A stretch of 12,153 bases of DNA. Source: a virus (Duplodnaviria > Heunggongvirae > Uroviricota > Caudoviricetes). The stretch's first letter is position 1; each line of letters starts with the position of its first letter. The notes beneath the pieces were generated by a model, which had not been told where the DNA came from, did not search any database, and was given only the letters and a program-made list of their open reading frames with translations. Below are positions 1 to 12,153 of this stretch, in pieces. A program made the translations under genes and the position numbers. The stretch spans positions 1 through 12,153 of IMG/VR virus record IMGVR_UViG_2693429719_000002; one strand, 5' to 3'.

Positions 1-314
1 TGGGCGTAATTCCGGGAAAGCTGCTCATACGAGACACCCAGCCCGGCAGCGATATACCGCAGCAGTGACTGCTCAAACACGGAGTAGCCGTTATCCGTAT
101 CCTGAGCCGTCTGCAGGTTCAGTGAGTCACCCGGCATCAGGTGCGGTACTTTTGCGCCTCCCAGCCGGACCGGCGCTGCGGCGTAATACGCGGCAATTTC
201 ACCAATCCAGCCGGTCAGCCTTTCCCGCTGCTCCTGACTGTTCGCGCCCAGAATAAAATCCATCGCTGACTGCGTATCCAGCTCACTCTCAATGGTGGCG
301 GCATACATCGCCTT
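1..314 (-). CDS. B: Lambda-type portal protein, C-terminal portion (begins ...KAMYAATIESELDTQSAMDFILGAN...); separated from its N-terminal portion by the insert; runs off the window start
   Basis: Minus-strand translation from 314 downward is open to position 1 and reads as the direct continuation of the portal sequence that stops at the right junction (SAIVKA | MYAAT...). Matches my recollection of lambda gpB; not listed in the ORF track because it touches the window edge. Confidence 0.85.
302..314. other. attL junction: core ATCGCCTT (307..314) within CATACATCGCCTT
   Basis: Same 13-mer with one mismatch occurs at 11230..11242 (CATAAATCGCCTT). The identical 8 bp at 307..314 and 11235..11242 is the likely crossover core. 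Confidence 0.7.
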
Positions 315-388
315 TATGAAAAGACAGGAAAAAATAAAATTTAAAAACAGTACATTACGAATACTCAAACCTATCGTTTAAAGGAGTC

Positions 389-410
389 GCAATACACATT
401 GCAATACACG
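389..410 (+). repeat. Tandem GCAATACAC(A) repeats near attL, putative integrase arm-type binding sites
   Basis: gcaatacacattgcaatacacg at 389..410 is nearly identical to 11084..11105 near the other end, between int and attR. Confidence 0.5.
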
Positions 411-650
411 ATTATTTCTCAGATGAGCGGCAAGCATCCAACAACTATCCGTCATAAAGCTGGTGGATGATCACGGATAAACCGTTATGGGAATCCCCAT
501 ATCGGCATCATGCCCACCAGCGTGGCGCATTTTTTTAATTTCGCGGGTTTAAAAATTTGACGAGGCTGGCGGTCCCATAAGCAATGGGGTGTAGGGATTC
601 CGATCCCCCCGGGGTATTAAACACCCACCCTATTTAAATACCGTCTTTTT

Positions 651-700
651 TGTCACTGTGTGTCACTGGTTGTCACTCTCCGTCACAGTATGTCACCATA
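651..700 (+). repeat. Five phased 10-bp repeats (TGTCACnnnn x5)
   Basis: TGTCAC/CGTCAC at 651, 661, 671, 681 and 691, exactly 10 bp apart, just downstream of the last minus-strand gene. Confidence 0.6.
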
Positions 701-702
701 AG

Positions 703-987
703 TTAACGTCGTAACCGCTCCGGCTTCTTCCACTGGTACGTAATTTTTTCTTTCTCCTGGTACATCTGCACGCGGCGACGGTATGACAACATCTCCAGAA
801 CTCTGCTCCGTATGTCGCGCATATCCACGCCGTTAAGCTCAATACCGTCACGGCGCATCACCTCAGCCACCACACGCGCGTAATTTTCGGCTATCACGCT
901 ATCCGGCTGCGTGGCCTTCTGTTTGCCTGCTGCCTGGCTGGCTCCGGTAATGCAGCGAATCATTTTGAGCATTTCGGCTTCGGTCAT
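703..987 (-). CDS. Hypothetical protein (94 aa from ATG at 987; ORF-track version starts at TTG 1017)
   Basis: ORF in track; GGAGG lies 8 nt upstream of the ATG at 987. No family recognised. Confidence 0.5.
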   Translation of the reverse strand: MTEAEMLKMIRCITGASQAAGKQKATQPDSVIAENYARVVAEVMRRDGIELNGVDMRDIRSRVLEMLSYRRRVQMYQEKEKITYQWKKPERLRR

Positions 988-1024
988 TATCATGGCCTCC
1001 GTGGTGATGGAAAACAATGCCGTA

Positions 1025-1250
1025 ATTGTGGCGGGTCCTTCCTGGAAAATGAAACACCGGGGGTAGCCATACGCGCAATTCTTAACTGTTTATGAAAATT
1101 TTTCGGGAAAAGCCAGATCCGTTCTTCTTCTCTGTAACTCATTGTTTAATGGTAAAATCATCAAAAAAAGAAAGGATCTGACAGTGGTCATTTTGGGCCA
1201 AAAATGACGTTATCAGATCCTTTCTCAGTTTTGTTCAATAATTGCGCGGC
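1025..1250 (+). other. Second cos-like segment in plus orientation: lambda-cosB-like arm with three R-site-like elements carrying CAGATCC instead of CGTTTCC, and a diverged cosN-like segment
   Basis: Plus strand 1080..1250 aligns to the remembered lambda left arm (TTTATGAAAATTTT.CGG, CGTTCTTCTTC, AAAAGAAAGGA, GACAG.G, CCTTTCTC.GTTTTTGT). The position equivalent to cosN reads CGGGGGTAGCCATACGCGC, not GGGCGGCGACCT. Confidence 0.5.
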
Positions 1251-1252
1251 TG

Positions 1253-1780
1253 TCACTCACCTTTCTGTTGCCGTAATTTCTCCGGTACGTTTCCGGTTGT
1301 TTCCATCAGATAATCGGACATCATCAGCGGGATATTTTCATCAAGTTTTGCGCATGCGTTACAGGCTCTGATAACTTCTTTTTTCAGGCCATCCAGCATA
1401 GACGGCTTCATATCGGGAAACTTCCTTATCATGACAAGTGGCAGGCTATCCATGATTGAAGAAATCTGACTCGCCAATTTTGAAAGCACGTATATACAAA
1501 ACGCTGTATCAATAACGTCGCCGCGTTCACGCTCGTTTTTAAGCTCCTGCGCCTCTGCCTGTGCTGTCAGTAATCTGATCCTGACTCGTAGGAGTTCATC
1601 ATCATCAATCTCGCCCGTTTCGTTTGTAATCTGGCTGATTGCATTGTTAACCCGATTATCTATTACACTGGCGACATCATAAAACGCCTCGCGGCCCTTA
1701 CGCTCGACGGGAATCACTCCCCACTTATCGAACGCAGTGGCGCTTACACGGCAACTTTTTGCCATGTTTTTTTTGTTCAT
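1253..1780 (-). CDS. Terminase small subunit, lambda Nu1-like (conserved C-terminal part, divergent N-terminal winged-HTH)
   Basis: C-terminal two-thirds aligns to lambda Nu1 (LLTAQAEAQELKNERERGDVIDTAFCIYVLSKLASQISSIMDSLPL... vs [46 protein letters not shown]...). N-terminus is related but substituted in the putative recognition helix. Start set at the internal ATG (MNKKN, 1780) by alignment with Nu1 MEVNKK. Confidence 0.85.
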   Translation of the reverse strand: MNKKNMAKSCRVSATAFDKWGVIPVERKGREAFYDVASVIDNRVNNAISQITNETGEIDDDELLRVRIRLLTAQAEAQELKNERERGDVIDTAFCIYVLSKLASQISSIMDSLPLVMIRKFPDMKPSMLDGLKKEVIRACNACAKLDENIPLMMSDYLMETTGNVPEKLRQQKGE

Positions 1781-1894
1781 CAGGTGCAATTTCATTGATA
1801 CCACAACTTAATTACTGTTTCAGGTTGGTGTATTGATTGTACTTTTCTCTTATTATTCATGCAGATACAGCGAACAACAAAACCACCACCAGTC

Positions 1895-1990
1895 CCCTTA
1901 AAATGCTCATAAATAGCGAAAACCCGCGAGGTCGCCGCCCCGTAGCCTACCGGATCGCCGGAAAGGACCCGCCAGCCAGAACGGGCCCTA
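1895..1990 (-). other. Lambda-type cos site (cosQ-like sequence, cosN, first ~22 nt of the left arm) upstream of the Nu1-like gene
   Basis: Minus strand reads GGCGGGTCCTTTCCGGCGATCCGGTAGGCTACG GGGCGGCGACCT CGCGGGTTTTCGCTATTTATGA, near-identical to the remembered lambda right end, cosN and left end. Sequence then diverges from lambda cosB (1781..1894). Confidence 0.75.
1929..1940 (-). other. cosN cohesive-end sequence GGGCGGCGACCT (minus-strand reading)
   Basis: Plus strand shows AGGTCGCCGCCC, the exact reverse complement of the lambda 12-nt cohesive end. Confidence 0.75.
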
Positions 1991-1996
1991 ATTTCA

Positions 1997-2380
1997 TCAA
2001 CCAATCAACTTATAGCGACCATCCCGCGCATTGCGACGTACACGCTCAATCTTGAGGCATAGCGCCGCATCTGGCTTTTTTGGGACAGGTACGCGGCAAT
2101 ATTCAGAAGCTCGAGGAATATTGTTTATCCAGTCGATCACTTCACTTAAATACCAGGCCTTACGCCCTTCCGTAACCTGTACGCGTTCGGGGAACTCTCC
2201 GCGAGCCTCAAGGTTTAGCAATGTGCGACGGCTAAGGGTAGTAAGTTCCATCACCTGATTCATATCAACAAGGCGTTCACTTAAACGCATTTTGTCAGCA
2301 ATAGCCTTTAATTCCTCTACTGCTGGATCCGGATACATCATTTCGGCAATTGGCTTAAGGTCATTGTAATGATTCTGCAT
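1997..2380 (-). CDS. AlpA-family helix-turn-helix protein with a ~40-aa N-terminal extension (second AlpA-like gene of the island)
   Basis: Contains MNQVMELTTLSRRTLLNLEARGEFPERVQVTEGRKAWYLSEVIDWI, typical of AlpA/excisionase-type HTH. GGGGG RBS 5 nt upstream of ATG; starts 11 nt after the decoration gene stop. Confidence 0.65.
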   Translation of the reverse strand: MQNHYNDLKPIAEMMYPDPAVEELKAIADKMRLSERLVDMNQVMELTTLSRRTLLNLEARGEFPERVQVTEGRKAWYLSEVIDWINNIPRASEYCRVPVPKKPDAALCLKIERVRRNARDGRYKLIG

Positions 2381-2391
2381 TGTATCCCCCT

Positions 2392-2733
2392 TTACACACG
2401 AGCCAGCGGCTGAACAGAAATACCTGAGCCAACAAACGCGGCAACCTTTGCCGACAGTTCTTTTACAGACTCAGGCCAGTTCAGAGCATCAACATTTAAA
2501 ACACCTGTCTTATAAACCTGTGCCTGTGTTTTTTTCGCTGTGTCGATTTGTACAGCGGAAACATAAACCGCTTTACCTACGCTCGAACCATCCCATACCA
2601 CCAGTGCACCTGTTGCATCTTCCTGCATCAGTGGCGTAAATGCAGGAATTACCCCTTTATTAGCTGAAAATATCCCCAGCGTAGTCACCAGTGCTTCAGT
2701 GCCAGCCATGAGTTCAGTGTAATGAGTAGCCAT
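2392..2733 (-). CDS. Head decoration protein, lambda gpD-like
   Basis: Aligns to lambda gpD (TPLMQEDATGALVVWDGSS vs TPLMLDTSSRKLVAWDGTT; WPESVKELSAKVAAFVGSGISV vs [23 protein letters not shown]). Confidence 0.8.
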   Translation of the reverse strand: MATHYTELMAGTEALVTTLGIFSANKGVIPAFTPLMQEDATGALVVWDGSSVGKAVYVSAVQIDTAKKTQAQVYKTGVLNVDALNWPESVKELSAKVAAFVGSGISVQPLARV

Positions 2734-2742
2734 TGCTCCCCC

Positions 2743-3789
2743 TTAGCCAATGCGAACGGTAACAAAACGATTGATGCGGGCCGGTATTGGCTGTGGTGCT
2801 GAATGTGTCTGCACATATTCAATAGCCGGATCACCAGGCACAATATAGTTTTTCGGTGCAAGTTCGGCTTTAGTCAGCCCCATTCGGATTAGCTCCGGAT
2901 CCTGAATACCGCCATAGGCGACAATCCCCTGAAGAGCCGTATTGCCAAGCACCATCAAATCAGGATCAAGGAAATGTTTTTCTGTTCCGTCCTCGTCGGT
3001 ATAACGCCCGCTGTAAACAACAATCGCAACATCGCCCATATACCCTTTAAAACTCACCGAATCACCAAGGTCTTTAAGGGCCGTTTCCAGTTCGGAATTA
3101 GAACCACGACGGGTATCCAAAGCCTCTTTTATCGCTCTGAATGAACGGTATTTCTTCCATACATTACCACCCATAATGATGATATTAGTGACGCCCTCAC
3201 TAAATTCTGCGTAGCTCTCAATATCATCATTTGGATCAAAAGTTTCTTTATCCTTACCTGACCACTCAGTACCGCCAGACTGAGTGATGATATTTTGTGG
3301 TTTTATATTCCAGTCCAGCTCATAACGTTCAATACCATCGCCCTCAATGATATTTTTCCCCGTTGTGATTGCCTGAACAGCAAGCCATTCAATACGTGCA
3401 CGAATAGCTTTAGCCTGATTTACAATCGCCTGTTTAACTTTAATATTACGCGCCCCAAAAGCATTGTATTGCTCAGGTGACACACCAGCAGGGCGCACAG
3501 CTAACTTATTTGGATCAATGCTGCTTTTCGGCTTCATATAACCTGGACGAATTGTTTTTGATTCGTATCCCTCATCTCGTGAAACTTTACTGCCCACCAT
3601 AGGAGAGCAAAACGCCGCGATCGGGATATTTGGATCGTCGATCGTATCAAGAATAATGTCTCTCGATTCAAACATTACCGAGCGAGTGAAAAACAAACTG
3701 GTAAACAACGCATTTAATTTTTTTTGCACATCTTCAGCATTAGCCACCTGCACAAGCTGTGTAGGCGAATATAAATCAACCATACTCAT
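2743..3789 (-). CDS. Major capsid protein, lambda gpE family
   Basis: Strong similarity to lambda gpE (NIITQSGGTEWSGKDKETFDPNDDIESYA vs NITQSGGTEWSKRDKSTYDPTDDIEAYA; LDTRRGSNSELETALKDLG; GDVAIVVYSG; MVLGNT). Start trimmed to MSMVDLY (3789), AAGAGG RBS adjacent; the ATG at 3783 is an alternative. Confidence 0.9.
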   Translation of the reverse strand: MSMVDLYSPTQLVQVANAEDVQKKLNALFTSLFFTRSVMFESRDIILDTIDDPNIPIAAFCSPMVGSKVSRDEGYESKTIRPGYMKPKSSIDPNKLAVRPAGVSPEQYNAFGARNIKVKQAIVNQAKAIRARIEWLAVQAITTGKNIIEGDGIERYELDWNIKPQNIITQSGGTEWSGKDKETFDPNDDIESYAEFSEGVTNIIIMGGNVWKKYRSFRAIKEALDTRRGSNSELETALKDLGDSVSFKGYMGDVAIVVYSGRYTDEDGTEKHFLDPDLMVLGNTALQGIVAYGGIQDPELIRMGLTKAELAPKNYIVPGDPAIEYVQTHSAPQPIPARINRFVTVRIG

Positions 3790-3954
3790 CCTCTTTACAT
3801 TCATTACAAATAATTGTGAATATATTCTATTACCGATGTCTGCTATGCGAATACATGCAACCAAGTGCAATGTTGTATAAAATATGCCGTAACAACTTCA
3901 GTGCTGATAATTCGTGTTAATGTATTTACTTCCTTTGGTCGGGATTTATGTAGC

Positions 3955-3983
3955 ATGCCGGAAAATCTATTTTTTTCCGGCAT
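3955..3983 (+). terminator. Perfect 11-bp inverted repeat (ATGCCGGAAAA ... TTTTCCGGCAT) followed by CTTTTTGTTTG on the plus strand
   Basis: Read directly; lies in the SSB-capsid intergenic region. T-run follows only on the plus strand, antisense to the operon. Confidence 0.3.
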
Positions 3984-4000
3984 CTTTTTGTTTGCAGAAT

Positions 4001-4423
4001 TTAAAACGGTATATTATCGCCGTACGGATCATCATTCCCCGACTGTTGTTTTGCCCTGTTCAGTGCGTCAGTGGCCTGCCCCTGCTGGCCTTTTTTGCCG
4101 CCCGGTCGCGCCGTTCGCGCACTGATTACGCTGTCTGCGATAACCTGCCAGCCCCGCCGCGTTTCGCCGTTCTGGCCTGTCCACTGGCTTACCTGCATGT
4201 TACCCGCCACGCTCACCAGTTCGCCTTTGTGGTGTCTGGCCAGTGCGTCAGCCTGTCTGCCAAACGCCAGGACGGATAACCACATCGTCGCCGTTCCGTC
4301 ATCTGCCTGGCTGCACGGCAGGGGAACCGCCATACTCGCCATCGCCATTTGTGTCCCTTTGCTGGTGGTCTTTAACTGCGGGTCAGCCACCAGCCGCCCG
4401 TAAGCCGCTATCTGTGCTGTCAT
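4001..4423 (-). CDS. ssb: Single-stranded DNA-binding protein (SSB-like)
   Basis: OB-fold region similar to E. coli SSB (WLSVLAFGRQADALARH..GELVSVAGNMQVSQWTGQNGETR vs [43 protein letters not shown]). Acidic C-terminal tail ends ...DDPYGDNIPF, like DDDIPF. Confidence 0.8.
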   Translation of the reverse strand: MTAQIAAYGRLVADPQLKTTSKGTQMAMASMAVPLPCSQADDGTATMWLSVLAFGRQADALARHHKGELVSVAGNMQVSQWTGQNGETRRGWQVIADSVISARTARPGGKKGQQGQATDALNRAKQQSGNDDPYGDNIPF

Positions 4424-4665
4424 GCTGTCTGCTCTCCGGTTTTAACGTTGATGGTTGTCACCTGTTCCGCTTCGGCAATCTCCCGTTCTGTCAGCGTGGC
4501 AAAGTTTGCCGCCGTCGTGGCCATGAATGCGCTTATCAGTTCGGGATGTGCTTTCGCGTATCCCTCTCCCGCGTTGCGGTCGATGATTTTTATCGCCACC
4601 CTCAGCCAGTGTTCTGTCAAATCAAGGGCGTGAGATTGTGGTTTTTTTGCGTGCTTCGTTGTCAC
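4420..4665 (-). CDS. Hypothetical protein (81 aa, GTG start), translationally coupled to ssb
   Basis: GAGGT lies 7 nt upstream of the GTG; stop overlaps the ssb start (ATGA). No family recognised. Confidence 0.5.
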   Translation of the reverse strand: MTTKHAKKPQSHALDLTEHWLRVAIKIIDRNAGEGYAKAHPELISAFMATTAANFATLTEREIAEAEQVTTINVKTGEQTA

Positions 4666-4699
4666 AGGCTTTACCTCACAGCAATAAAATAAAATTTTT

Positions 4700-4945
4700 G
4701 CATTTTAACCCTTCACCTGTTCACCTTTTGCGATTTTCCCTTTTTATTCATGATGTTAAGGGGTGAACAGTTTCACAAAAACTATTCACCAACTGTTCAC
4801 CACTGTTCACCCTTAAAGCTCAATAAATAATCAAAAAGGTGAACAGTGAATAGTTTGGTGAACAGTTCACAAATAACTGTTCACCCTATAATGTACTGAT
4901 ATAAAAGACATTTATGACAGGGTGAACAGTGGTGAACAGTTATTC
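4700..4945. repeat. Iteron array (about 10 copies of GGTGAACAG / CTGTTCACC in both orientations) in an AT-rich region; putative origin of replication
   Basis: Copies at about 4716, 4762, 4782, 4792, 4803, 4838, 4857, 4878, 4921 and 4931, immediately downstream of the primase-helicase gene. Confidence 0.65.
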
Positions 4946-4952
4946 CATAAGT

Positions 4953-6758
4953 TTAATTTTTTCCATCGTCATTTGTGACCGATGTACATGATGGCATCCA
5001 GTCTTCTGAATCCTCTGTCAGGGTCACATTTGAACGCAAACCGTGCTTCGTTTTCCGTTTCATATACTCCCTGCCATATTCCGCCATTGCCCCCGGCATA
5101 TCTTTACCGAAGCGCGTCAGTGTTACAGGTTTACCGAATCCGTGTGCCCTCATATATGCCAGATAGGCGTGATAAAGATACCTGCGCGGACTGAACGGAA
5201 TAATTTCGGCATTACCCACTAACAGACCATCACACATTACCGACGACATGAGATAGCCGCAGAAGTCCACCAGCGAATCGCCCTCGCGTTTTATCACCAG
5301 AGCTTCTTCTGATTTCTGCTGCTCATACAGCAGGCGTTTAGCTTCGTCCTGGTCAGAAAAACGAGTAAGCAGGTGGCGAATCACAACCGCCAGCTCTCCT
5401 TCTATTTTTTCTGCCAGCATGGGGTCGCGTTCGTTTTCCGGTACAACCTCCGAAAAATTGAATATCACCCGACGACGTGAGATCCCCCCGCTGCGGTCAC
5501 TGAATGACATGGCGTTATTGTTCACCGCCAGCACGACCGCCTGAATGCGTGTTGAGTAGGGAGCTTTATGTTTCGGGTCAATTGCCACCTTGTCACCGCC
5601 TGTAATGGCCTTAATTCCTGCACCATCACCAGCGTAGCGGGTCATATCCGGCATGATAATCAGCGAAAAGCCAACCACTAACGCGCGTTCCCTGGCATCT
5701 TCCAGCGCCTTCATGCTTGCCGACACCGTGTTGGCCTTACCCGCCAGCATGGTGCAAATCTCCGCCATTACGCTTTTACCGCTTCCACCCGGCCCCGTTA
5801 CCTCAAGAAATAACTGCCAGTCGTATCGGTTCGCCAGCACCATGAATAACGCCGCCAGTACGCGATCCGCTTTACGGTCATTCTCTGCCACCGAACGGCG
5901 CAACCATTTCCAGAAATTCGGCGCATGCGTTGCCAGCGTTTCCCCCTCTGCTGGTGGGCTGAACGGTAATTCACTGGCAATTAACAGCCAGTCGTTTTTG
6001 TCATGCTCCCGAAAATCGCCTGTCCGGGTATCAAAAACACCGTTACTGAATCCAATCAGGTTACGGGCGGTATTTCCCATTACGGGCAAACTTAACTTCA
6101 TGGTATCGACCGCCGATTTGATGGCGTTCTGCGAATAACTGATCTCCGCATCAATAAAAATCTGCGCCATAGCCCGCTGTAACTCTTTATCCTGTACCGG
6201 CTCCCATACAACGCCGTTGTAGTGGTGAACTGTGTCAGAGTCCGCATTGATTGCCAGTTCACCGCCATAATGGGCCAGGAGAACTTCGCCGCGCTGGCTT
6301 GCTCCCATCTGGTTAAGCGCCAGTGGTGCGGCGCTGTCTTCTGTTTTTTTCTTAACAGGAAGCTGAATAACCAGACCATCAGAAAGATTCTGGCGCTCAC
6401 GCTCCAGATATTCGCGCCACTCCTCCCGCTTCTGGCTGTGCATTCCCTCAGGGTAATAATTCGCATCCCGTACACCTGCCGCCGCCAGCTTTTGCCCGAT
6501 GGCATTAATATTTGACGGCTTGATGTGGCCTGCCTTGTACAGCCGGACACAATAGCGACCATCGTCGATAATTTTCAGGTCTGCCAGTTCGTCAAGCTGG
6601 CTGTCTCCCAGCCATACAGGCGGAACATTGTCACCAGCAAGTCGCCCGTCCTGCTCCTGCCATTGTTTCGCGTGCGCCCAGGCATCACTACCCGCAAAAA
6701 TAATGACTTCGGTCATTTTGTCGTGCGGCTGTTTTTTTAAGTTCGGTGCCAGTTTCAT
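4953..6758 (-). CDS. Primase-helicase / replication initiator with P-loop NTPase domain
   Basis: 601-aa ORF with Walker A motif (EVTGPGGSGKSVMAEICTML) and an N-terminal primase-like region. Usual position for a satellite replication protein, followed by iterons. Confidence 0.85.
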   Translation of the reverse strand: MKLAPNLKKQPHDKMTEVIIFAGSDAWAHAKQWQEQDGRLAGDNVPPVWLGDSQLDELADLKIIDDGRYCVRLYKAGHIKPSNINAIGQKLAAAGVRDANYYPEGMHSQKREEWREYLERERQNLSDGLVIQLPVKKKTEDSAAPLALNQMGASQRGEVLLAHYGGELAINADSDTVHHYNGVVWEPVQDKELQRAMAQIFIDAEISYSQNAIKSAVDTMKLSLPVMGNTARNLIGFSNGVFDTRTGDFREHDKNDWLLIASELPFSPPAEGETLATHAPNFWKWLRRSVAENDRKADRVLAALFMVLANRYDWQLFLEVTGPGGSGKSVMAEICTMLAGKANTVSASMKALEDARERALVVGFSLIIMPDMTRYAGDGAGIKAITGGDKVAIDPKHKAPYSTRIQAVVLAVNNNAMSFSDRSGGISRRRVIFNFSEVVPENERDPMLAEKIEGELAVVIRHLLTRFSDQDEAKRLLYEQQKSEEALVIKREGDSLVDFCGYLMSSVMCDGLLVGNAEIIPFSPRRYLYHAYLAYMRAHGFGKPVTLTRFGKDMPGAMAEYGREYMKRKTKHGLRSNVTLTEDSEDWMPSCTSVTNDDGKN

Positions 6759-7069
6759 TTTGCCTTTCCCCGTTCACGAATAATTTCACGTACTGCCTTA
6801 ATGCGTTCCATACCTGTAACGCGCATGATTCTGTCGATGTCGCTTAAGTTCGCTGGTGGTGCTTTGCTTACCAGGGTGAATTCACTCTCAAAACGCATAT
6901 GTGACGACACGCAGGGATGCGCATAACCTTCGCGGATATAAGTCACGCGAAAATCGTCAACGGTTTTTATCGTTATTCGTCCGCCGTATTTATCTTTGAA
7001 AATATCGTCGGGGCGGATTTCAGGCCGAGCGGGGCCGCTGGCAGTAAAGCCAGAATTTTTCTTTTTCAT
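6755..7069 (-). CDS. Hypothetical protein (104 aa), translationally coupled to the primase-helicase gene
   Basis: ORF in track; stop overlaps the primase start (ATGA). No family recognised. Confidence 0.55.
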   Translation of the reverse strand: MKKKNSGFTASGPARPEIRPDDIFKDKYGGRITIKTVDDFRVTYIREGYAHPCVSSHMRFESEFTLVSKAPPANLSDIDRIMRVTGMERIKAVREIIRERGKAK

Positions 7070-7075
7070 GTTTTT

Positions 7076-7294
7076 TTACTCCAGAGGCAGCTTTTTAGCG
7101 GCGAGCTCAATATCAGATGTCAGAGAAACCTGTGTATTTGCCAGGTCTAACAACAAAGAAATAAGAATTTCCTCTCTGCTATCGGATTTATCGGTGCTAA
7201 GGCTGTTCATCCACATATTGACGACTTCCCTGATTTTTTTCGCGGAGTGCAGGGCTTCAAATGCCAGGTCTTCAATATCACGTTTATTTCGCAT
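7076..7294 (-). CDS. Hypothetical protein (72 aa from ATG at 7294)
   Basis: ORF in track; start moved to the internal ATG (MRNKRD) preceded by a GGGGG RBS. Confidence 0.45.
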   Translation of the reverse strand: MRNKRDIEDLAFEALHSAKKIREVVNMWMNSLSTDKSDSREEILISLLLDLANTQVSLTSDIELAAKKLPLE

Positions 7295-7529
7295 AATCGC
7301 CCCCACCATTTTCACAATCAACAATCAGGATGGCTTTAGCCTCATTCAGCGCCATATCAGCGGTAAGCTGCACATATGCCAGCGAATGCGGGATTATCGC
7401 CCCTGTATATTCCGGCTCTCTGGTAATGTGTTTTTCTGCGGTTGCTGCCGTGCATGAAATATCAATCAGCGCGTCCATCAGCGTTCTGATGGCTTCGCCT
7501 GCTGCGTCCGGCGTGTTTTTATTGCACAT
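7284..7529 (-). CDS. Hypothetical protein (81 aa)
   Basis: ORF in track; start overlaps the stop of the upstream 68-aa gene; GGGGG RBS upstream. Confidence 0.45.
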   Translation of the reverse strand: MCNKNTPDAAGEAIRTLMDALIDISCTAATAEKHITREPEYTGAIIPHSLAYVQLTADMALNEAKAILIVDCENGGGDYAK

Positions 7530-7725
7530 GGCGCACCCCCTGACGAATACGGGCGGCGAATACCATCACACAGCCATCAGGAGATTGCTGGCGTGCTTCC
7601 TGTTCGCTGGTGGCCTCGATGGTAATCACGCGCGGCTGTGCCGTGCTCAGGGCGATAAAACGCCAGATGTATTTATTCAGGTTGTACGAGTCCCGCCCTT
7701 GCGGGTGTGTGGTATGATTTAACAT
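7522..7725 (-). CDS. Hypothetical protein (68 aa), first gene of the leftward operon
   Basis: Corresponds to the last 68 codons of the 411-aa track ORF 7519..8754. ATG at 7725 has GAGG 5 nt upstream; the upstream part of that long ORF is judged spurious. Confidence 0.5.
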
Positions 7726-7823
7726 AGCTACCTCGATACTTCTGCTATCGTTGGTGGTTAGAAGCCCCGTTACTGCTCCTACAGTGCGGGGTTTCGTCGT
7801 TTCTGCACCTTGCATTAACAAGG

Positions 7824-7900
7824 TGTAAGTAACTTTATTTATAGGTGGCTTACATGTCAATGCTTTTATGTAAGACTTTTTATGTGTATATTGTCTTACA
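7824..7900. promoter_or_regulatory. Divergent promoter region with two ~31-bp operator-like elements (TGTAAG-N19-CTTACA)
   Basis: TGTAAG at 7824 and 7869, CTTACA at 7849 and 7895. A TTGACA -35 for the leftward operon (reverse complement of 7855..7860) abuts the first element. Confidence 0.5.
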
Positions 7901-7921
7901 CTTTCATTGAGAGGATTACAG

Positions 7922-8227
7922 ATGGCTACAGGTTCAAAAAACGCAAAATCACAATCACTGACAGCTCGGATCCCGCATGATGTTATTGAAGGCATGGAAT
8001 CCGTAAAACTGGACGGTGAAAGCAACGCCGGATTCATCGTAACCGCCATGCGCGGTGAAATCGCCCGCCGCCAGGCAGAAGGAAGCGGAGAAAACCTCCT
8101 GGTTTCTTCGCTCGATGCACTGGCGCAGGTGGAAAAAATCGGAGTCAAAGCAGCCGAGGAGATCGGGCAACTCATCACCGTCGCGCGTGAAGAACTCCAG
8201 CGTCGCAAGGCCAAAGAGCAGGAGTAA
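7922..8227 (+). CDS. Small regulatory protein, possibly ribbon-helix-helix type (101 aa)
   Basis: ATG at 7922 with GAGAGGA RBS 6 nt upstream. N-terminal SLTARIPHDVIEGMESV resembles an RHH strand-helix motif (weak, by eye). Sits next to the operator-like repeats. Confidence 0.5.
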   Translation: MATGSKNAKSQSLTARIPHDVIEGMESVKLDGESNAGFIVTAMRGEIARRQAEGSGENLLVSSLDALAQVEKIGVKAAEEIGQLITVAREELQRRKAKEQE

Positions 8228-8284
8228 CCATCACCAGCGCCGTGGTGCGACGAACTGTGGCGCACAGGGTTACAGGTATCTACG

Positions 8285-8482
8285 ATGACTGACAAATCAT
8301 TAAAGAAATTATCCTCATCCAGGAAAAAACAACGCAAAAACGCGGTAAGCGAACAAGAACAGGAAAGATTCGCGCCATGTGCGTTTGTCCTTGAGAAGTT
8401 CCTTAACGAGTACAGGCGCACAAAAATGGGATCGCATACCTGGAAAACATCGCAGCATGGCGATGCTAAAGAGCAGGAATAG
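8285..8482 (+). CDS. Hypothetical small basic protein (65 aa)
   Basis: ORF in track; weak RBS. Its last residues and stop context duplicate those of the upstream gene (AKEQE). Confidence 0.35.
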   Translation: MTDKSLKKLSSSRKKQRKNAVSEQEQERFAPCAFVLEKFLNEYRRTKMGSHTWKTSQHGDAKEQE

Positions 8483-8585
8483 CCCACCAGCAAGCCAGCA
8501 CACTGATCACATTGCCAACCGGATGTAATCACGGCATAGTAATCAGCGCTCATGCGTTGGGGATAACGCGCAATTAGTGTTGAAG

Positions 8586-8613
8586 GGCCACCGTAGCGGG
8601 TGGCCTTTGTTTT
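8586..8613 (+). terminator. Rho-independent terminator (GGCCACC-GTAGC-GGGTGGCC + TTTGTTTT)
   Basis: GC-rich hairpin followed by a T-run, about 100 bp downstream of the plus-strand genes. Confidence 0.6.
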
Positions 8614-8666
8614 GCCTGTTATCCGGCAATTGTGGCGCTTCGTCACACGGTTGATATAATTCCCCT

Positions 8667-8740
8667 GCACTGATCCATTTTTTTCGCAGCAGGTTAATTG
8701 TTCGCAAGGGCGCTCCGGCAACGGGGCGCTTTTTGTTTTT
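8667..8740 (+). ncRNA. Candidate small RNA (~75 nt) between an extended -10 promoter and a strong terminator
   Basis: TGATATAAT at 8652..8660; terminator at 8710..8740; no ORF in the interval. Confidence 0.3.
8710..8740 (+). terminator. Rho-independent terminator (8-bp stem with GCAA loop + TTTTTGTTTTT)
   Basis: GCGCTCCG-GCAA-CGGGGCGC followed by an 11-nt T-rich run. Confidence 0.65.
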
Positions 8741-8898
8741 ACCCACCAGCACAATAAAAATCTTCATTTTCCATTTTTGTAAAATTTCATGCTTTCCGGA
8801 TGGCTGGCCATATGTCATTTTTTAGCAGAAGATTTTGCCTTGCTGGTGGATAGCTTCCCGGTCAACACGATGTACCGTATAATCAGCACCGCGTGTGG

Positions 8899-9477
8899 TT
8901 ACTGAATACGCTCACCAAAGTAAAACTCAGGCTGATATTCACGTATCAGCCTTTTTTCTTCTTCCTCCAGCTCACGCTTTTTGCGCTTACATGCCTGTAG
9001 CTCCCTCCCCTTCTCGCTGGCACTTATCCGGTATTGCTCTTTGCGGCGGGAAAAATCCTGTAATGCGCCCCACGGGATACCATAAGCCCCCGTTTTTCTG
9101 ATACCCGGTATCACATTTCTGAATACCCAATTACTGAAACTATGAGCAAATGTGCCAGGCGTCATTGCTTTGCGGCTACGGGCTATTAGTTTGTAGAAAC
9201 CTGACTCAGAGATAATGCTCATATTCTGATTTCCTCCGGGGGTGTAAGTTAAATTTACTCCCTTTTCATCATCATCAAGCATCTGCAACGCCGTACGCGA
9301 ATTGGTCAGTTCCAGCGCAGCGCAGACATCCTTTGCAACAAACCACGGATCGCCGTTCAGATACACCACGCGAACGTTCACACCATCAAAGCGCAGAACG
9401 ACGAGATCACGAATATCGCAGAATTTTTTCACTGGACGAGCGTACCCCTTGCCCGTCACGGCAATATTTTTATTCAT
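8899..9477 (-). CDS. Bro-N domain protein (putative antirepressor-like)
   Basis: Bro-N signature read by eye: VRVVYLNGDPWFVAKDVCAALEL...SESGFYKLIARSRKAM...FSNWVFRNVIPGIRKTGAY. Confidence 0.8.
   Translation of the reverse strand: MNKNIAVTGKGYARPVKKFCDIRDLVVLRFDGVNVRVVYLNGDPWFVAKDVCAALELTNSRTALQMLDDDEKGVNLTYTPGGNQNMSIISESGFYKLIARSRKAMTPGTFAHSFSNWVFRNVIPGIRKTGAYGIPWGALQDFSRRKEQYRISASEKGRELQACKRKKRELEEEEKRLIREYQPEFYFGERIQ
8929..8958 (+). terminator. Plus-strand hairpin + T6 inside the 3' end of the Bro-N coding region (antisense)
   Basis: AGGCTGATA-TTCACG-TATCAGCCT followed by TTTTTT; a TATAAT at 8878..8883 lies upstream. Confidence 0.4.
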
Positions 9478-9494
9478 CGCGTTTTGACCTTATA

Positions 9495-9520
9495 GACAAA
9501 AAACCCCTCGTAATGAGGGG
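9495..9520 (-). terminator. Rho-independent terminator downstream of alpA (CCCCTC-ATTAC-GAGGGG + TTTTTTG on the minus strand)
   Basis: Hairpin and U-tract begin 14 nt after the alpA stop. Confidence 0.6.
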
Positions 9521-9533
9521 CGTTATTTACTGG

Positions 9534-9791
9534 TTATTGCTGTTTTGTTTTTCCAGGTTTCCATCCAGGATGCCACTCACCACGGATCCACGCCTGAACC
9601 TCTGAAAGTCGATAGCCTGCCGCACGTTCGCCGATCTTGATACGTCGCGGGAATTTACCTGCCTGCTCCATTTTCCAGCGTGTTGAGTTTGCCAGCGTGG
9701 TAAGTGCTATGCATTCTTTTTCACGAATGAACCGATCAATGTCCTTCATTGCGCGCAAATCGTTTTCATCCACAAGAGAATAAATTGTCAT
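9534..9791 (-). CDS. alpA: AlpA-family transcriptional regulator / excisionase-like protein
   Basis: 85-aa HTH protein directly downstream of int (start 1 nt after the int stop); GAGGTGG RBS. Confidence 0.8.
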   Translation of the reverse strand: MTIYSLVDENDLRAMKDIDRFIREKECIALTTLANSTRWKMEQAGKFPRRIKIGERAAGYRLSEVQAWIRGEWHPGWKPGKTKQQ

Positions 9792-9792
9792 A

Positions 9793-11034
9793 TCACACCA
9801 CCTCTTTATTAAGCTCGATAACGTTGTTGTTAAATCCTGCTATCGTATTAAGGTAATTAACCCACATATTAAGCACCTCAAGTTTTTTCTTTATATGCCT
9901 GCTTTTATTGTAAACACCAGCAACCCCTTTCACTTTATGACCCAAAAGAAGTTCGACAATATAAGGATCCGCCCCCATATCATTAAGCATTGTGGAAAAT
10001 GTGCGCCTGAAATCATGTATGCACCACAAGCCATTAGTATCATGACCAAGACGCCTGCATATTCTGTTTGCAGCCCCTGTTATTGTCGCCCTTTGCAAAG
10101 CACAACCGACAACATAACCGCGATTCTTTGTTTCTGCGTAAAGATTAACGATCCATTGTTTTATACCGTCAGGAACGGGCCTTACTATGGCCTCACCGTT
10201 TTTGCTGTGCTCTTTTGGGACTGTCCATACCCAGTTTTTTAAATCCCATTCTTCCCAGGTGGATAACCTCGCCTCCTGCTGTCGACAACCAAACGCCAGG
10301 CATATCACCATAATTCTTCGGTTATGTATCGATGAGAGAGTAAGCAAATTATTTCCATAAGCATACGACCATACATCAGCAGTTTCATTGATGCTAAGAA
10401 CGCGATCCCGTATACCGGACGAGCGGCCTACATAACTTACATTAATGTCTCCAAATGGATCGCAAGCGATATATTGCCTGACGCGACAAAACCGCAACGC
10501 CTGTTTAATATCAAGAAAAATTGCACCAGACATAACAGGCGCATTTTTTTTAATCCTGTCAAAGACGGTAAGCCATGTGTGTAATTTGCACTGTTCTATG
10601 GCCATATCGCCGATATAGGGGAATATATGCTTTTCAAATCGTTTTATTAAATATTCATGCTCTTTTCTGGCTGTTGTGGCGTGATTGTCGTACCAGTAAA
10701 ACAGCGCATCCCTTACGGTCACTGGTTGCATAGTTTTTTCGGCAGCAAGTTTTATTTGCCTGCGGGGGTCCAGATTTTCAGCCAGCCATTCACGGCACTG
10801 ATCACGCATGCGCCTGGCAGTTGCAAGAGACATGTCAGGATAGCGACCAAGTGTAAGCCATACCGGAGGGGATTTCCTGCCACCAAGACGATAGTAAAAA
10901 ACAAAGCTTATCCCCCCGACCATGCTTACACGCACAGACAGCCCGCGACCATCCGCTATTGTTTTTTGTTTGTCCTGTCGTTTTCCGGCAAGACTCTTTA
11001 ACAGTTTGTCGCTGAGTTTGTTTTCAATAGCCAT
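9793..11034 (-). CDS. int: Tyrosine-type site-specific integrase (P4-like)
   Basis: 413 aa; C-terminal catalytic motifs HDFRRTF ... LLGHKVKGVAGVYNKS (H-x-x-R ... Y); sits next to the element end. Confidence 0.95.
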   Translation of the reverse strand: MAIENKLSDKLLKSLAGKRQDKQKTIADGRGLSVRVSMVGGISFVFYYRLGGRKSPPVWLTLGRYPDMSLATARRMRDQCREWLAENLDPRRQIKLAAEKTMQPVTVRDALFYWYDNHATTARKEHEYLIKRFEKHIFPYIGDMAIEQCKLHTWLTVFDRIKKNAPVMSGAIFLDIKQALRFCRVRQYIACDPFGDINVSYVGRSSGIRDRVLSINETADVWSYAYGNNLLTLSSIHNRRIMVICLAFGCRQQEARLSTWEEWDLKNWVWTVPKEHSKNGEAIVRPVPDGIKQWIVNLYAETKNRGYVVGCALQRATITGAANRICRRLGHDTNGLWCIHDFRRTFSTMLNDMGADPYIVELLLGHKVKGVAGVYNKSRHIKKKLEVLNMWVNYLNTIAGFNNNVIELNKEVV

Positions 11035-11052
11035 TAACAGCCCTCAAGAGAT

Positions 11053-11106
11053 TTGCAATACACACCCATCCCGATCGCCAATTTGCAATACACATTGCAA
11101 TACACA
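11053..11106 (+). repeat. Three TTGCAATACACA repeats between int and attR, putative arm-type integrase sites / int promoter region
   Basis: Copies at 11053, 11083 and 11095; the last two form the same 22-mer found at 389..410. Confidence 0.5.
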
Positions 11107-11182
11107 AAACCGCGAAAAACCGGAATAGTGGTGAACGGTCATCAAAAGTATGGAAAACGACATTCCAGACGCAGCAAGGGTT

Positions 11183-12064
11183 TTAGTGGAGTTGGCGAAC
11201 GATGCGGACAACTACGGTGAGATGATAGACATAAATCGCCTTCACAATGGCGCTCTGCAGCTGCGTGTTCTGCAGCGTGTCGAGCATCTTCATCTGCTCC
11301 ATCACGCTGTAAAACACATTTGCACCGCGGGTCTGCCCGTCCTCCACGGGTTCAAAAACGTGAATGAACGAGGTGCGCCCGCCGGGTAACTCACGGGGCA
11401 TCCATGTCCATTTCTGCGGCATCCAGCCAGGATACCCGTCCTCGCTGACGTAATATCCCAGCGCCGCGCCGCTGTCATTAATCTGCACACCGGCACGGCA
11501 GTTCCGGCTGTCGCCGGTATTGTTCGGGTTGCTGATACGCTTCGGGCTGACCATCCGGAACTGTGTCCGGAACAGTCGCGAGGGACTGGTATCCCAGGTG
11601 GCCTGAACGAACAGTTCACCGTTAAAGGCGTGCATGGCCACACCTTCCCGAATCATCATGGTAAACGTGCGTTTTCGCTCAACGTCAATGCAGCAGCAGT
11701 CATCCTCGGCAAACTCTTTCCATGCCGCTTCAACCTCGCGGGAAAAGGCACGGGCTTCTTCCTCCCCGATGCCCAGATAGCGCCAGCTTGGGCGATGACT
11801 GAGCCGGAAAAAAGATCCGACGATATGATCCTGATGCAGCTGGATGGCGTTGGCGGCATAGCCGTTATTGCGTACCAGATCGTCTGCGCGGGCATTGCCA
11901 CGGGTAAAGTTGGGCAACAGGGCTGCATCCACACTTTCACCCGGTGGGTTCCACGCCCGCAACTGCCCTCCAAATCCGCTGCCACCGCCGTGATAACCGG
12001 CATATTCGCGCAGCGATGTCATGCCGTCCGGCCCCAGAAGGGTGGGAATGGTGGACGTTTTCAT
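11183..12064 (-). CDS. B: Lambda-type portal protein, N-terminal portion; ends in 17 element-derived codons after ...SAIVKA
   Basis: 293-aa ORF starting [34 protein letters not shown], near-identical to remembered lambda gpB. Homology stops at the core, then reads [17 protein letters not shown] and terminates. Confidence 0.9.
11230..11242. other. attR junction: core ATCGCCTT (11235..11242) within CATAAATCGCCTT
   Basis: Direct repeat of 302..314 with one mismatch at the fifth base. Confidence 0.7.
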
Positions 12065-12153
12065 ACATAAAATCCTGCAGGTCCCCTGCGTCGCTGTGTC
12101 ATGCCGGTCTGCACTTCCAGCTCCGCAATGTATTTTTTCAGGTCAGACACGGA
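12061..12153 (-). CDS. W: Head-tail joining protein W, C-terminal part (runs off the window end); stop overlaps the portal start
   Basis: Minus-strand translation ...[30 protein letters not shown] matches the remembered lambda gpW C-terminus. Has the lambda-like GTATGA overlap with the B start. Confidence 0.8.

Follow-up and report, generated by a model that had tools for sequence, protein, structure and literature searches.

A P4-type iteron cluster as the probable replication origin of an Escherichia coli PICI

The DNA analysed here (the window) is a stretch of 12,153 nucleotides, positions 1 to 12,153 of the virus record IMGVR_UViG_2693429719_000002. It contains the whole of an E. coli phage-inducible chromosomal island (PICI, a phage satellite; approximately 315–11236), whose genes listed below for the island are all on the minus strand. 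Directly 3′ of a 601-aa minus-strand gene, whose stop codon is at 4953, lies an intergenic gap of 287 bp (4666–4952) filled by a cluster of short repeats. The question raised by this locus is whether replication of the island starts at these repeats or whether they serve accessory, regulatory or packaging functions. Judged by sequence comparison, the cluster at 4709–4939 very probably serves as replication origin in an EcCICFT073-type PICI with the DNA-binding specificity of satellite phage P4. A preliminary description of this DNA had proposed a satellite origin here, and the proposal is well supported by an iteron identical to that of P4, an alpha-like C-terminus of the initiator, the same layout in 25 relatives, co-variation of iteron and wing, and the published test of EcCICFT073 (PMC6092414). 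The kind of element is already known, both as the PICI origin 3′ of pri-rep and as the type I iteron origin of P4.

Anatomy of the iteron cluster

The 9-mer GGTGAACAG is present in nine exact copies, on the plus strand at 4762, 4838, 4857, 4921 and 4931 and on the minus strand at 4717, 4793, 4803 and 4877. A copy with one mismatch, GGTGAATAG, is found at 4782 on the minus strand, and all ten copies lie within 4717–4939. The preliminary description had counted about ten copies in both orientations, and both the count and its coordinates were accurate. When two mismatches were allowed, two degenerate copies were added, GGTGAAGGG at 4709 (minus) and AGTGAATAG at 4845 (plus), giving a total of 12 sites with dyad symmetry about approximately 4824. 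Across the full 12 kb window, GGTGAACAG at no more than one mismatch was found 17 times compared with 2.5 ± 1.6 expected, and none of 200 shuffles reached 17. The 8-mer GGTGAACA occurs 10 times in the window compared with 0.38 expected. Nine of these copies are inside 4717–4939 and the tenth is a solitary site within a gene. The shuffles rule out a chance or low-complexity repeat.

On the plus strand the layout of the cluster reads << (36 bp) > (11 bp) <<< (26 bp) >>> (11 bp) < (35 bp) >>, so that two six-site modules are mirror images of each other about approximately 4824. Neighbouring sites of the same orientation are mostly 8–12 bp apart from start to start, which is about one helical turn. 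The gene-proximal module (4838–4939) has the layout of P4 ori. It begins with three direct sites at 4838, 4845 (the degenerate copy) and 4857. An inverted site comes 20 bp later at 4877, and direct sites come a further 44 bp on at 4921 and another 10 bp on at 4931. The gene-distal module (4709–4811) mirrors this arrangement with sites at 4709 (degenerate), 4717, 4762, 4782 (one mismatch), 4793 and 4803.

The 9-mers were also said to flank AT-rich stretches, and the spacers between the sites do have a GC content of only 0.19–0.31 compared with 0.485 for the window. The central segment (4812–4837; 26 bp, GC 0.19) is placed between two inward-facing iteron triplets and is a candidate melting site. 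The other two long spacers each lie between divergent iterons, the distal one at 4726–4761 (36 bp, AT/T-rich, GC 0.31) and the proximal one at 4886–4920 (35 bp, AT-rich, GC 0.26). Neither the DnaA box TTATNCACA (at no more than one mismatch) nor the IHF consensus nor GATC sites were found in 4641–4970, and no Rfam family matched at the gathering threshold across the window. Single-strand folding of the region predicted long hairpins on both strands (z −6.8 and −8.6). Because the iterons are inverted, these hairpins do not constitute independent evidence.

Counterparts in P4, EcCICFT073 and other relatives

The P4 record X51522 carries 8-bp 'ori type 1 repeat' features in both ori and crr, and the P4 ori sequence contains GGTGAACAG six times, which is the same 9-mer as the iteron of the window. 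The sites of the window are identical to the P4 type I iteron TGTTCACC, and this iteron (TGTTCACC / GGTGAACA) is multicopy in the window; the type 2 repeats of P4 ori were not seen in the window. Ziegelin and colleagues are said to have found in 1993 that alpha binds the type I iterons of ori as well as those of crr. P4 ori (9310–9414) starts with a direct triplet at intervals of 10 and 11 bp, which precedes an inverted site 21 bp further on and, after 44 bp, a direct pair at an interval of 10 bp. In the proximal module the sites follow one another in this order and orientation, with spacings of 20, 44 and 10 bp compared with 21, 44 and 10 bp in P4, and 77 of 108 aligned columns (71%) are identical between 4838–4939 and P4 ori. 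The proximal 35-bp spacer resembles the P4 ori spacer, a likeness equalled by 12 of 2000 shuffles. The distal spacer (4726–4761) scored 10–14 against the two P4 crr repeat spacers compared with −1.7 ± 3.4, and 0–1 of 2000 shuffles reached its score. Relative to the initiator gene, both modules of the window are oriented as their counterparts are in P4. Going by these alignments, the cluster resembles a P4-ori-like module fused head to head with a P4-crr-like one.

The arrangement in P4 differs from that in the window in several respects. P4 ori and crr are 4.5 kb apart, whereas the ori-like and crr-like modules of the window stand head to head within 231 bp. P4 crr is a tandem 120-bp duplication and a terminator (t-alpha) separates it from alpha, whereas the window has no terminator there. 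A separate cis-required crr several kb from ori belongs to the P4 pattern, whereas the island holds a single cluster. The element itself is a PICI with homologues of lambda-type capsid, decoration and TerS proteins, whereas P4-like elements carry sid, delta and psu. One locus in the comparison, from Erwinia rhapontici (L026), encodes a full-length alpha homologue of 812 aa that includes the primase part. There a terminator (3845–3900) comes right after the alpha gene and GGTGAACA iterons lie approximately 2.1 kb downstream (5987–6090), a dispersed P4 pattern unlike the compact PICI pattern.

Because P4 has crr, a cis-required accessory site, directly 3′ of its initiator gene and its ori 4.5 kb away, position 3′ of the gene alone does not mark an initiation site. 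The cluster could by this analogy be only a crr-like accessory or copy-control element that is bound by the initiator and brings about pairing or handcuffing of DNA, with the start of replication at another place. The place of crr in P4 and the crr-like distal spacer are in keeping with such a role, which we nevertheless consider unlikely. The proximal half of the cluster reproduces P4 ori. A search across the window and the island for a second GGTGAACA cluster, as a P4-like distant ori or crr would provide, found none, and the island lies entirely within the window. In EcCICFT073, moreover, removal of the equivalent region abolishes replication (PMC6092414).

This last result comes from the replication assay that the preliminary description had suggested, a test of pri plus ori, which was already published for the sister island EcCICFT073. 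Its pri-ori plasmid replicates in DH5alpha, and versions lacking ori or pri fail to do so (Fillol-Salom et al. 2018, PMC6092414). Replication of the pri-ori plasmid was seen in a helper-free strain (PMC6092414). The same study placed the origins of Gram-negative PICIs 3′ of the replication gene, with a set of iterons on either side of an AT-rich region where melting could take place; it named the EcCICFT073 pri product Pri-Rep, noted that pri and rep are fused only in some PICIs and, comparing the proteins of PICIs with alpha, termed them 'different in sequence' (PMC6092414). In the window, an arrangement of this kind is found at 4666–4952, 3′ of the pri-rep gene, where AT-rich DNA is enclosed by two sets of iterons. 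A deletion primer from the supplement of that paper, EcoCFT073-pri-4c, maps onto the iterons of the EcCICFT073 locus, which confirms that the gene is 'pri' (PMC6092414). The initiator of the window is 48% identical to the EcCICFT073 pri product over the full length. The N-terminal domains of the two proteins are approximately 75% identical (by eye), whereas the winged-helix domains are divergent. The two islands have a common gene order (DUF4222, initiator, an iteron region of approximately 288 bp, a small ORF, SSB, capsid and decoration homologues) and a common 2-1-3 / 3-1-2 layout of sites. The iteron of EcCICFT073 is GGTAGACA/GGTAGATA as opposed to GGTGAACAG, and it is the allele of the window that shares the specificity of P4.

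The comparative set comprised 23 further Enterobacterales loci, the induced satellite vB_KppS-Ant, EcCICFT073 (L028) and P4. Iterons are clustered just past the stop codon in all but one of the 23 loci and also in vB_KppS-Ant and EcCICFT073, so that 25 related elements have a cluster 3′ of the homologous gene when P4 is counted in its dispersed form. Most clusters of the set share the 2-1-3 / 3-1-2 layout. Six iteron variants occur among the relatives, GGTGAACA(G/C), GGTAGACA, GGTGGAGA, GCGGACAG, GGTGGACAG and GGTAGATAG, and each is paired with its own sequence and length of a segment in the C-terminal domain of the initiator that we take as the beta-hairpin wing of a winged helix (KRKTKHGLRSN in the window, aa 567–577, 5028–5060, minus strand). 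The segment YLYHAYLAYM is nearly invariant in most groups. The wing of the window and that of P4 (KRHTKQGIQTN) are closely related. Two loci from one metagenome-assembled genome, L018 and L025, encode initiators that are 95% identical overall and differ in the wing; their iterons are GGTGAACAC and GGTGGAGAG, respectively. Because the sequence and length of the wing track the iteron among the relatives, we infer that the wing is the specificity determinant. Nine loci have the GGTGAACA iteron (the window, vB_KppS-Ant, L004–L006, L008–L010 and L019). In these, conservation reaches 80% in the columns of the iterons and 59% in those of the spacers (Mann-Whitney p 2e-8, an approximate value since the sequences are related). 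Taken together, these comparisons show that the C-terminal domain of the initiator binds at the repeats and that selection acts on the sites as well as on their geometry.

A full-text literature search for the iteron sequence retrieved no paper. The exact P4 iteron in this allele, the reading of the cluster as a fused ori and crr, the table of iteron and wing specificities and the degenerate Toprim domain described below were not found in the searchable literature, although Figure 2a of PMC6092414, which lists iteron sequences, may show part of these points.

The initiator and a proposed mechanism of initiation

The initiator gene (4953–6758, minus strand; 601 aa) encodes a P4 alpha homologue that lacks the primase part, and the protein is 50% identical to alpha aa 313–776. 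In P4 alpha, a DnaG-type primase is joined to an SF3 helicase and, at the C-terminus, to a winged helix (PMC2777425). The C-terminal domain of the initiator (aa 493–589; 4992–5282, minus strand) matches PDB 1ka8, the solved origin-binding domain of P4 alpha, in a phmmer search (E=2.4e-24), and it also matches Pfam Pox_D5. The D5_N and SF3 helicase core (aa 158–446; 5421–6287, minus strand) matches Pfam D5_N, DUF5906 and, weakly, PPV_E1_C, as well as the primase-helicase 7ola.

The N-terminal part is different. In alpha, Pfam identifies Zn_Ribbon_Prim (30–66) and Toprim_3 (210–299), which have no counterparts in the protein of the window, and its first 160 aa gave no Pfam family even at E≤10. 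Structure prediction suggests that the N-terminal approximately 130 aa (6369–6758, minus strand) fold like Toprim, and this domain is without the catalytic Glu and DxD. In a comparison by eye, FAGSD replaces AEGYA of alpha and LYKAG replaces ADRD, and the catalytic acidic residues appear to be lost. An active DnaG-type primase, with a Zn ribbon and a Toprim domain containing EGYATA, as in P4, was not recognised in the initiator, and primase activity of this protein is doubtful on these grounds. The gene had been called a primase-helicase in the preliminary description; the primase half of that name is not supported, given the absence of the primase domains of alpha and the degenerate N-terminal domain. 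The N-terminal domain (aa 1–130) is also a mobile module. Near-identical copies (65–90%) are present on other E. coli replication proteins, in fusion with AAA_25/RepA-like ATPases (PF13481) and with a third type of partner beginning DDELKPRVESRADGVFWV. The Toprim-like domain might recruit the host primase or replisome.

Repeats at helical spacing beside AT-rich DNA, with the initiator gene adjacent, are also found in iteron plasmids of the pSC101, R6K and RK2 type. The Rep proteins of these plasmids have no helicase function of their own and require DnaA boxes as well as the loading of DnaB. Membership of this class (RepA, pi, TrfA) was rejected on the basis of an SF3 helicase as initiator and no DnaA box in 4641–4970. 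SV40 large T, papillomavirus E1 and poxvirus D5/E5 are, like the protein of the window, SF3 hexameric helicase initiators with a separate origin-binding domain. The origins of such viruses have in common with the window dyad sites around AT-rich DNA and share no sequence homology with it, so that the analogy is one of mechanism only. By this analogy, dyad sites around AT-rich DNA suggest loading of a double hexamer. For alpha itself, the biochemistry covers helicase polarity, looping between ori and crr, and independence from DnaA, DnaB, DnaC and DnaG.

For the origin of the island we propose the following sequence of events. The initiator, an SF3 hexameric helicase of the D5/P4-alpha type, would bind the GGTGAACAG sites through its C-terminal winged helix. 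Each module has as many sites (six) as a hexamer has subunits, and from this count one hexamer may dock on each module. The mirror arrangement would then load two hexamers flanking either the central 26-bp AT-rich segment or the 35–36-bp spacers, and the AT-rich DNA would be melted and unwound in both directions, as with other SF3 initiators. Primers are probably supplied by the host because the primase domains of alpha are missing, and the island SSB may help in this step. This SSB (4001–4423, minus strand; 140 aa, Pfam SSB 1.2e-15) ends in ...DDPYGDNIPF. The tip of E. coli SSB, DDDIPF, recruits host replication proteins, and the IPF tail of the island protein resembles it. The EcCICFT073 protein, whose pri-ori plasmid replicates without a helper, has the same N-terminal domain; either priming falls to the host or this domain is active in a way that has gone unrecognised.

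If the origin reading is right, a widespread island gains a concrete origin and a recognition code between initiator and DNA. The six natural pairs of iteron and wing, including initiators that are 95% identical and have different iterons, amount to a specificity table for recognition by SF3 winged-helix domains. The replication modules of PICIs and P4 would be linked more closely than in the 2018 description (PMC6092414), and cross-talk or incompatibility is predicted between co-resident satellites. A more speculative proposal, which we advance tentatively, is that, through the P4-specific Rep-ori of this PICI, members of two different satellite families that share an E. coli cell could each fire, titrate or block the origin of the other; that P4 ori and crr are a dyad-symmetric 12-site origin, docking two helicase hexamers, that has been pulled apart; and that a swap of the wing re-programs specificity, as the six iteron and wing pairs suggest. 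None of this overturns current understanding.

Transcription, packaging and the surrounding island

The cluster lies just upstream of the genes for an 81-aa protein, SSB and capsid. The 81-aa ORF (4420–4665, minus strand) is the first gene past the origin, and its position is kept in EcCICFT073 and CP148493. The sites might therefore be mainly operators, where binding of the initiator regulates or provides the promoter for these genes. A weak sigma-70-like match, TTCACT-17-TTTATT at 4850–4822, would fit such a role, as would an AT-rich stretch after the last iteron pair that is conserved in relatives. The match scores only 8.2 bits, which was the best value on the gene strand of the iteron region in a weight-matrix scan, and in an independent scan no match there reached 9/12 of the consensus. 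A far better promoter, TTGACA-17-TAAAGT at 7860–7832 on the minus strand, had the highest score on the gene strand of the whole window in the weight-matrix scan (15 bits). No terminator was found between the initiator gene and the 81-aa gene, and no terminator-like site was found on the gene strand from 7832 to the capsid genes. The same architecture also acts as an ori in P4 and EcCICFT073. We therefore regard a mainly regulatory function as very unlikely; an operator role could be additional to the origin role without replacing it.

The statement in the preliminary description that this region must carry the promoter of the SSB-capsid operon, which could couple replication to late expression, is likewise not borne out by these scans. 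The operon likely starts at 7860–7832 and runs through the replication genes and the origin. Read-through from this promoter is the simpler reading, and a weak or activator-dependent promoter in the iteron region is possible. The origin would then be located within a long operon and would probably be transcribed through. Close to the promoter, a 411-aa minus-strand ORF (7519–8754) with a TTG start looks spurious. RefSeq annotates in the equivalent region of relatives a plus-strand gene of the YlcI/YnfO family (window 7907–8227), divergent from the promoter at 7860–7832, and, as the first gene of the operon, one for an Icd-like cell-division inhibitor.

With its Nu1-family TerS the island needs a packaging site somewhere, but the idea that the repeats are this signal (cos/pac, TerS sites) can practically be dismissed, as they are 3 kb from terS, are identical to the P4 alpha binding sites and co-vary with the wing of the DNA-binding domain of the initiator.

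The gene content of the island agrees with the reading of the cluster as a PICI origin. The core components of PICIs are int, alpA, an operon in one direction, a homologue of a capsid-morphogenesis gene and terS, without tail or lysis genes (PMC10085698). The island has int (9793–11034, minus strand), AlpA beside it (9534–9791, minus strand), a Bro-N protein, DUF4222, the initiator, SSB, a lambda-E-type capsid homologue, a D-type decoration homologue and a Nu1-type TerS, and it has no tail or lysis genes. A second AlpA-family gene (1997–2380, minus strand; 127 aa, PF05930 1.4e-08) lies between the decoration homologue and terS and may be a late or packaging regulator. Assignment to the capsid-forming (cf-PICI) class was rejected, as the island holds only capsid, decoration and TerS homologues and is without portal, protease, TerL and head-tail connectors. 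Portal fragments at the ends of the window belong to the surrounding prophage and are not the island's own.

The island is inserted in a lambda-gpB-like portal gene of a lambdoid prophage, and the two parts of this gene occupy 1–314 and 11237–12064 of the window (minus strand). The right end of the window holds the N-terminal 276 codons of the portal gene, which continues from KAMYAATIESEL at the left end. The insertion junctions (307–314 and 11229–11236) share the 8-bp core ATCGCCTT. The genome CP011416 has the same junction in a DLP12-like prophage, with terL/W on one side and the genes for the S49 protease, D and E on the other, and the junction of portal and integrase is common to 62 of 5426 complete E. 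coli genomes. A PICI that disrupts the portal gene of a potential helper merits separate study. Just inside both ends of the island there is a 21-bp direct repeat, GCAATACACATTGCAATACAC (389–409 and 11085–11105), the copies of which are candidate arm-type binding sites of the integrase.

A query of 901 bp (window 4400–5300), which comprises the origin and parts of the flanking genes, was covered to at least 80% in 531 of 5426 complete E. coli genomes. CP148493 carries a copy of the origin region that is 99% identical; the island that holds it has its genes in the same order and lies at tRNA-Pro/yejM. In CP011416 (L029, 10514–12268), the same integrase and attachment site are combined with a different Rep-ori allele that encodes the 584-aa protein WP_000761841. 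The number of this accession is next to that of the EcCICFT073 initiator, WP_000761835. The replication module appears to have been swapped independently of the integration module.
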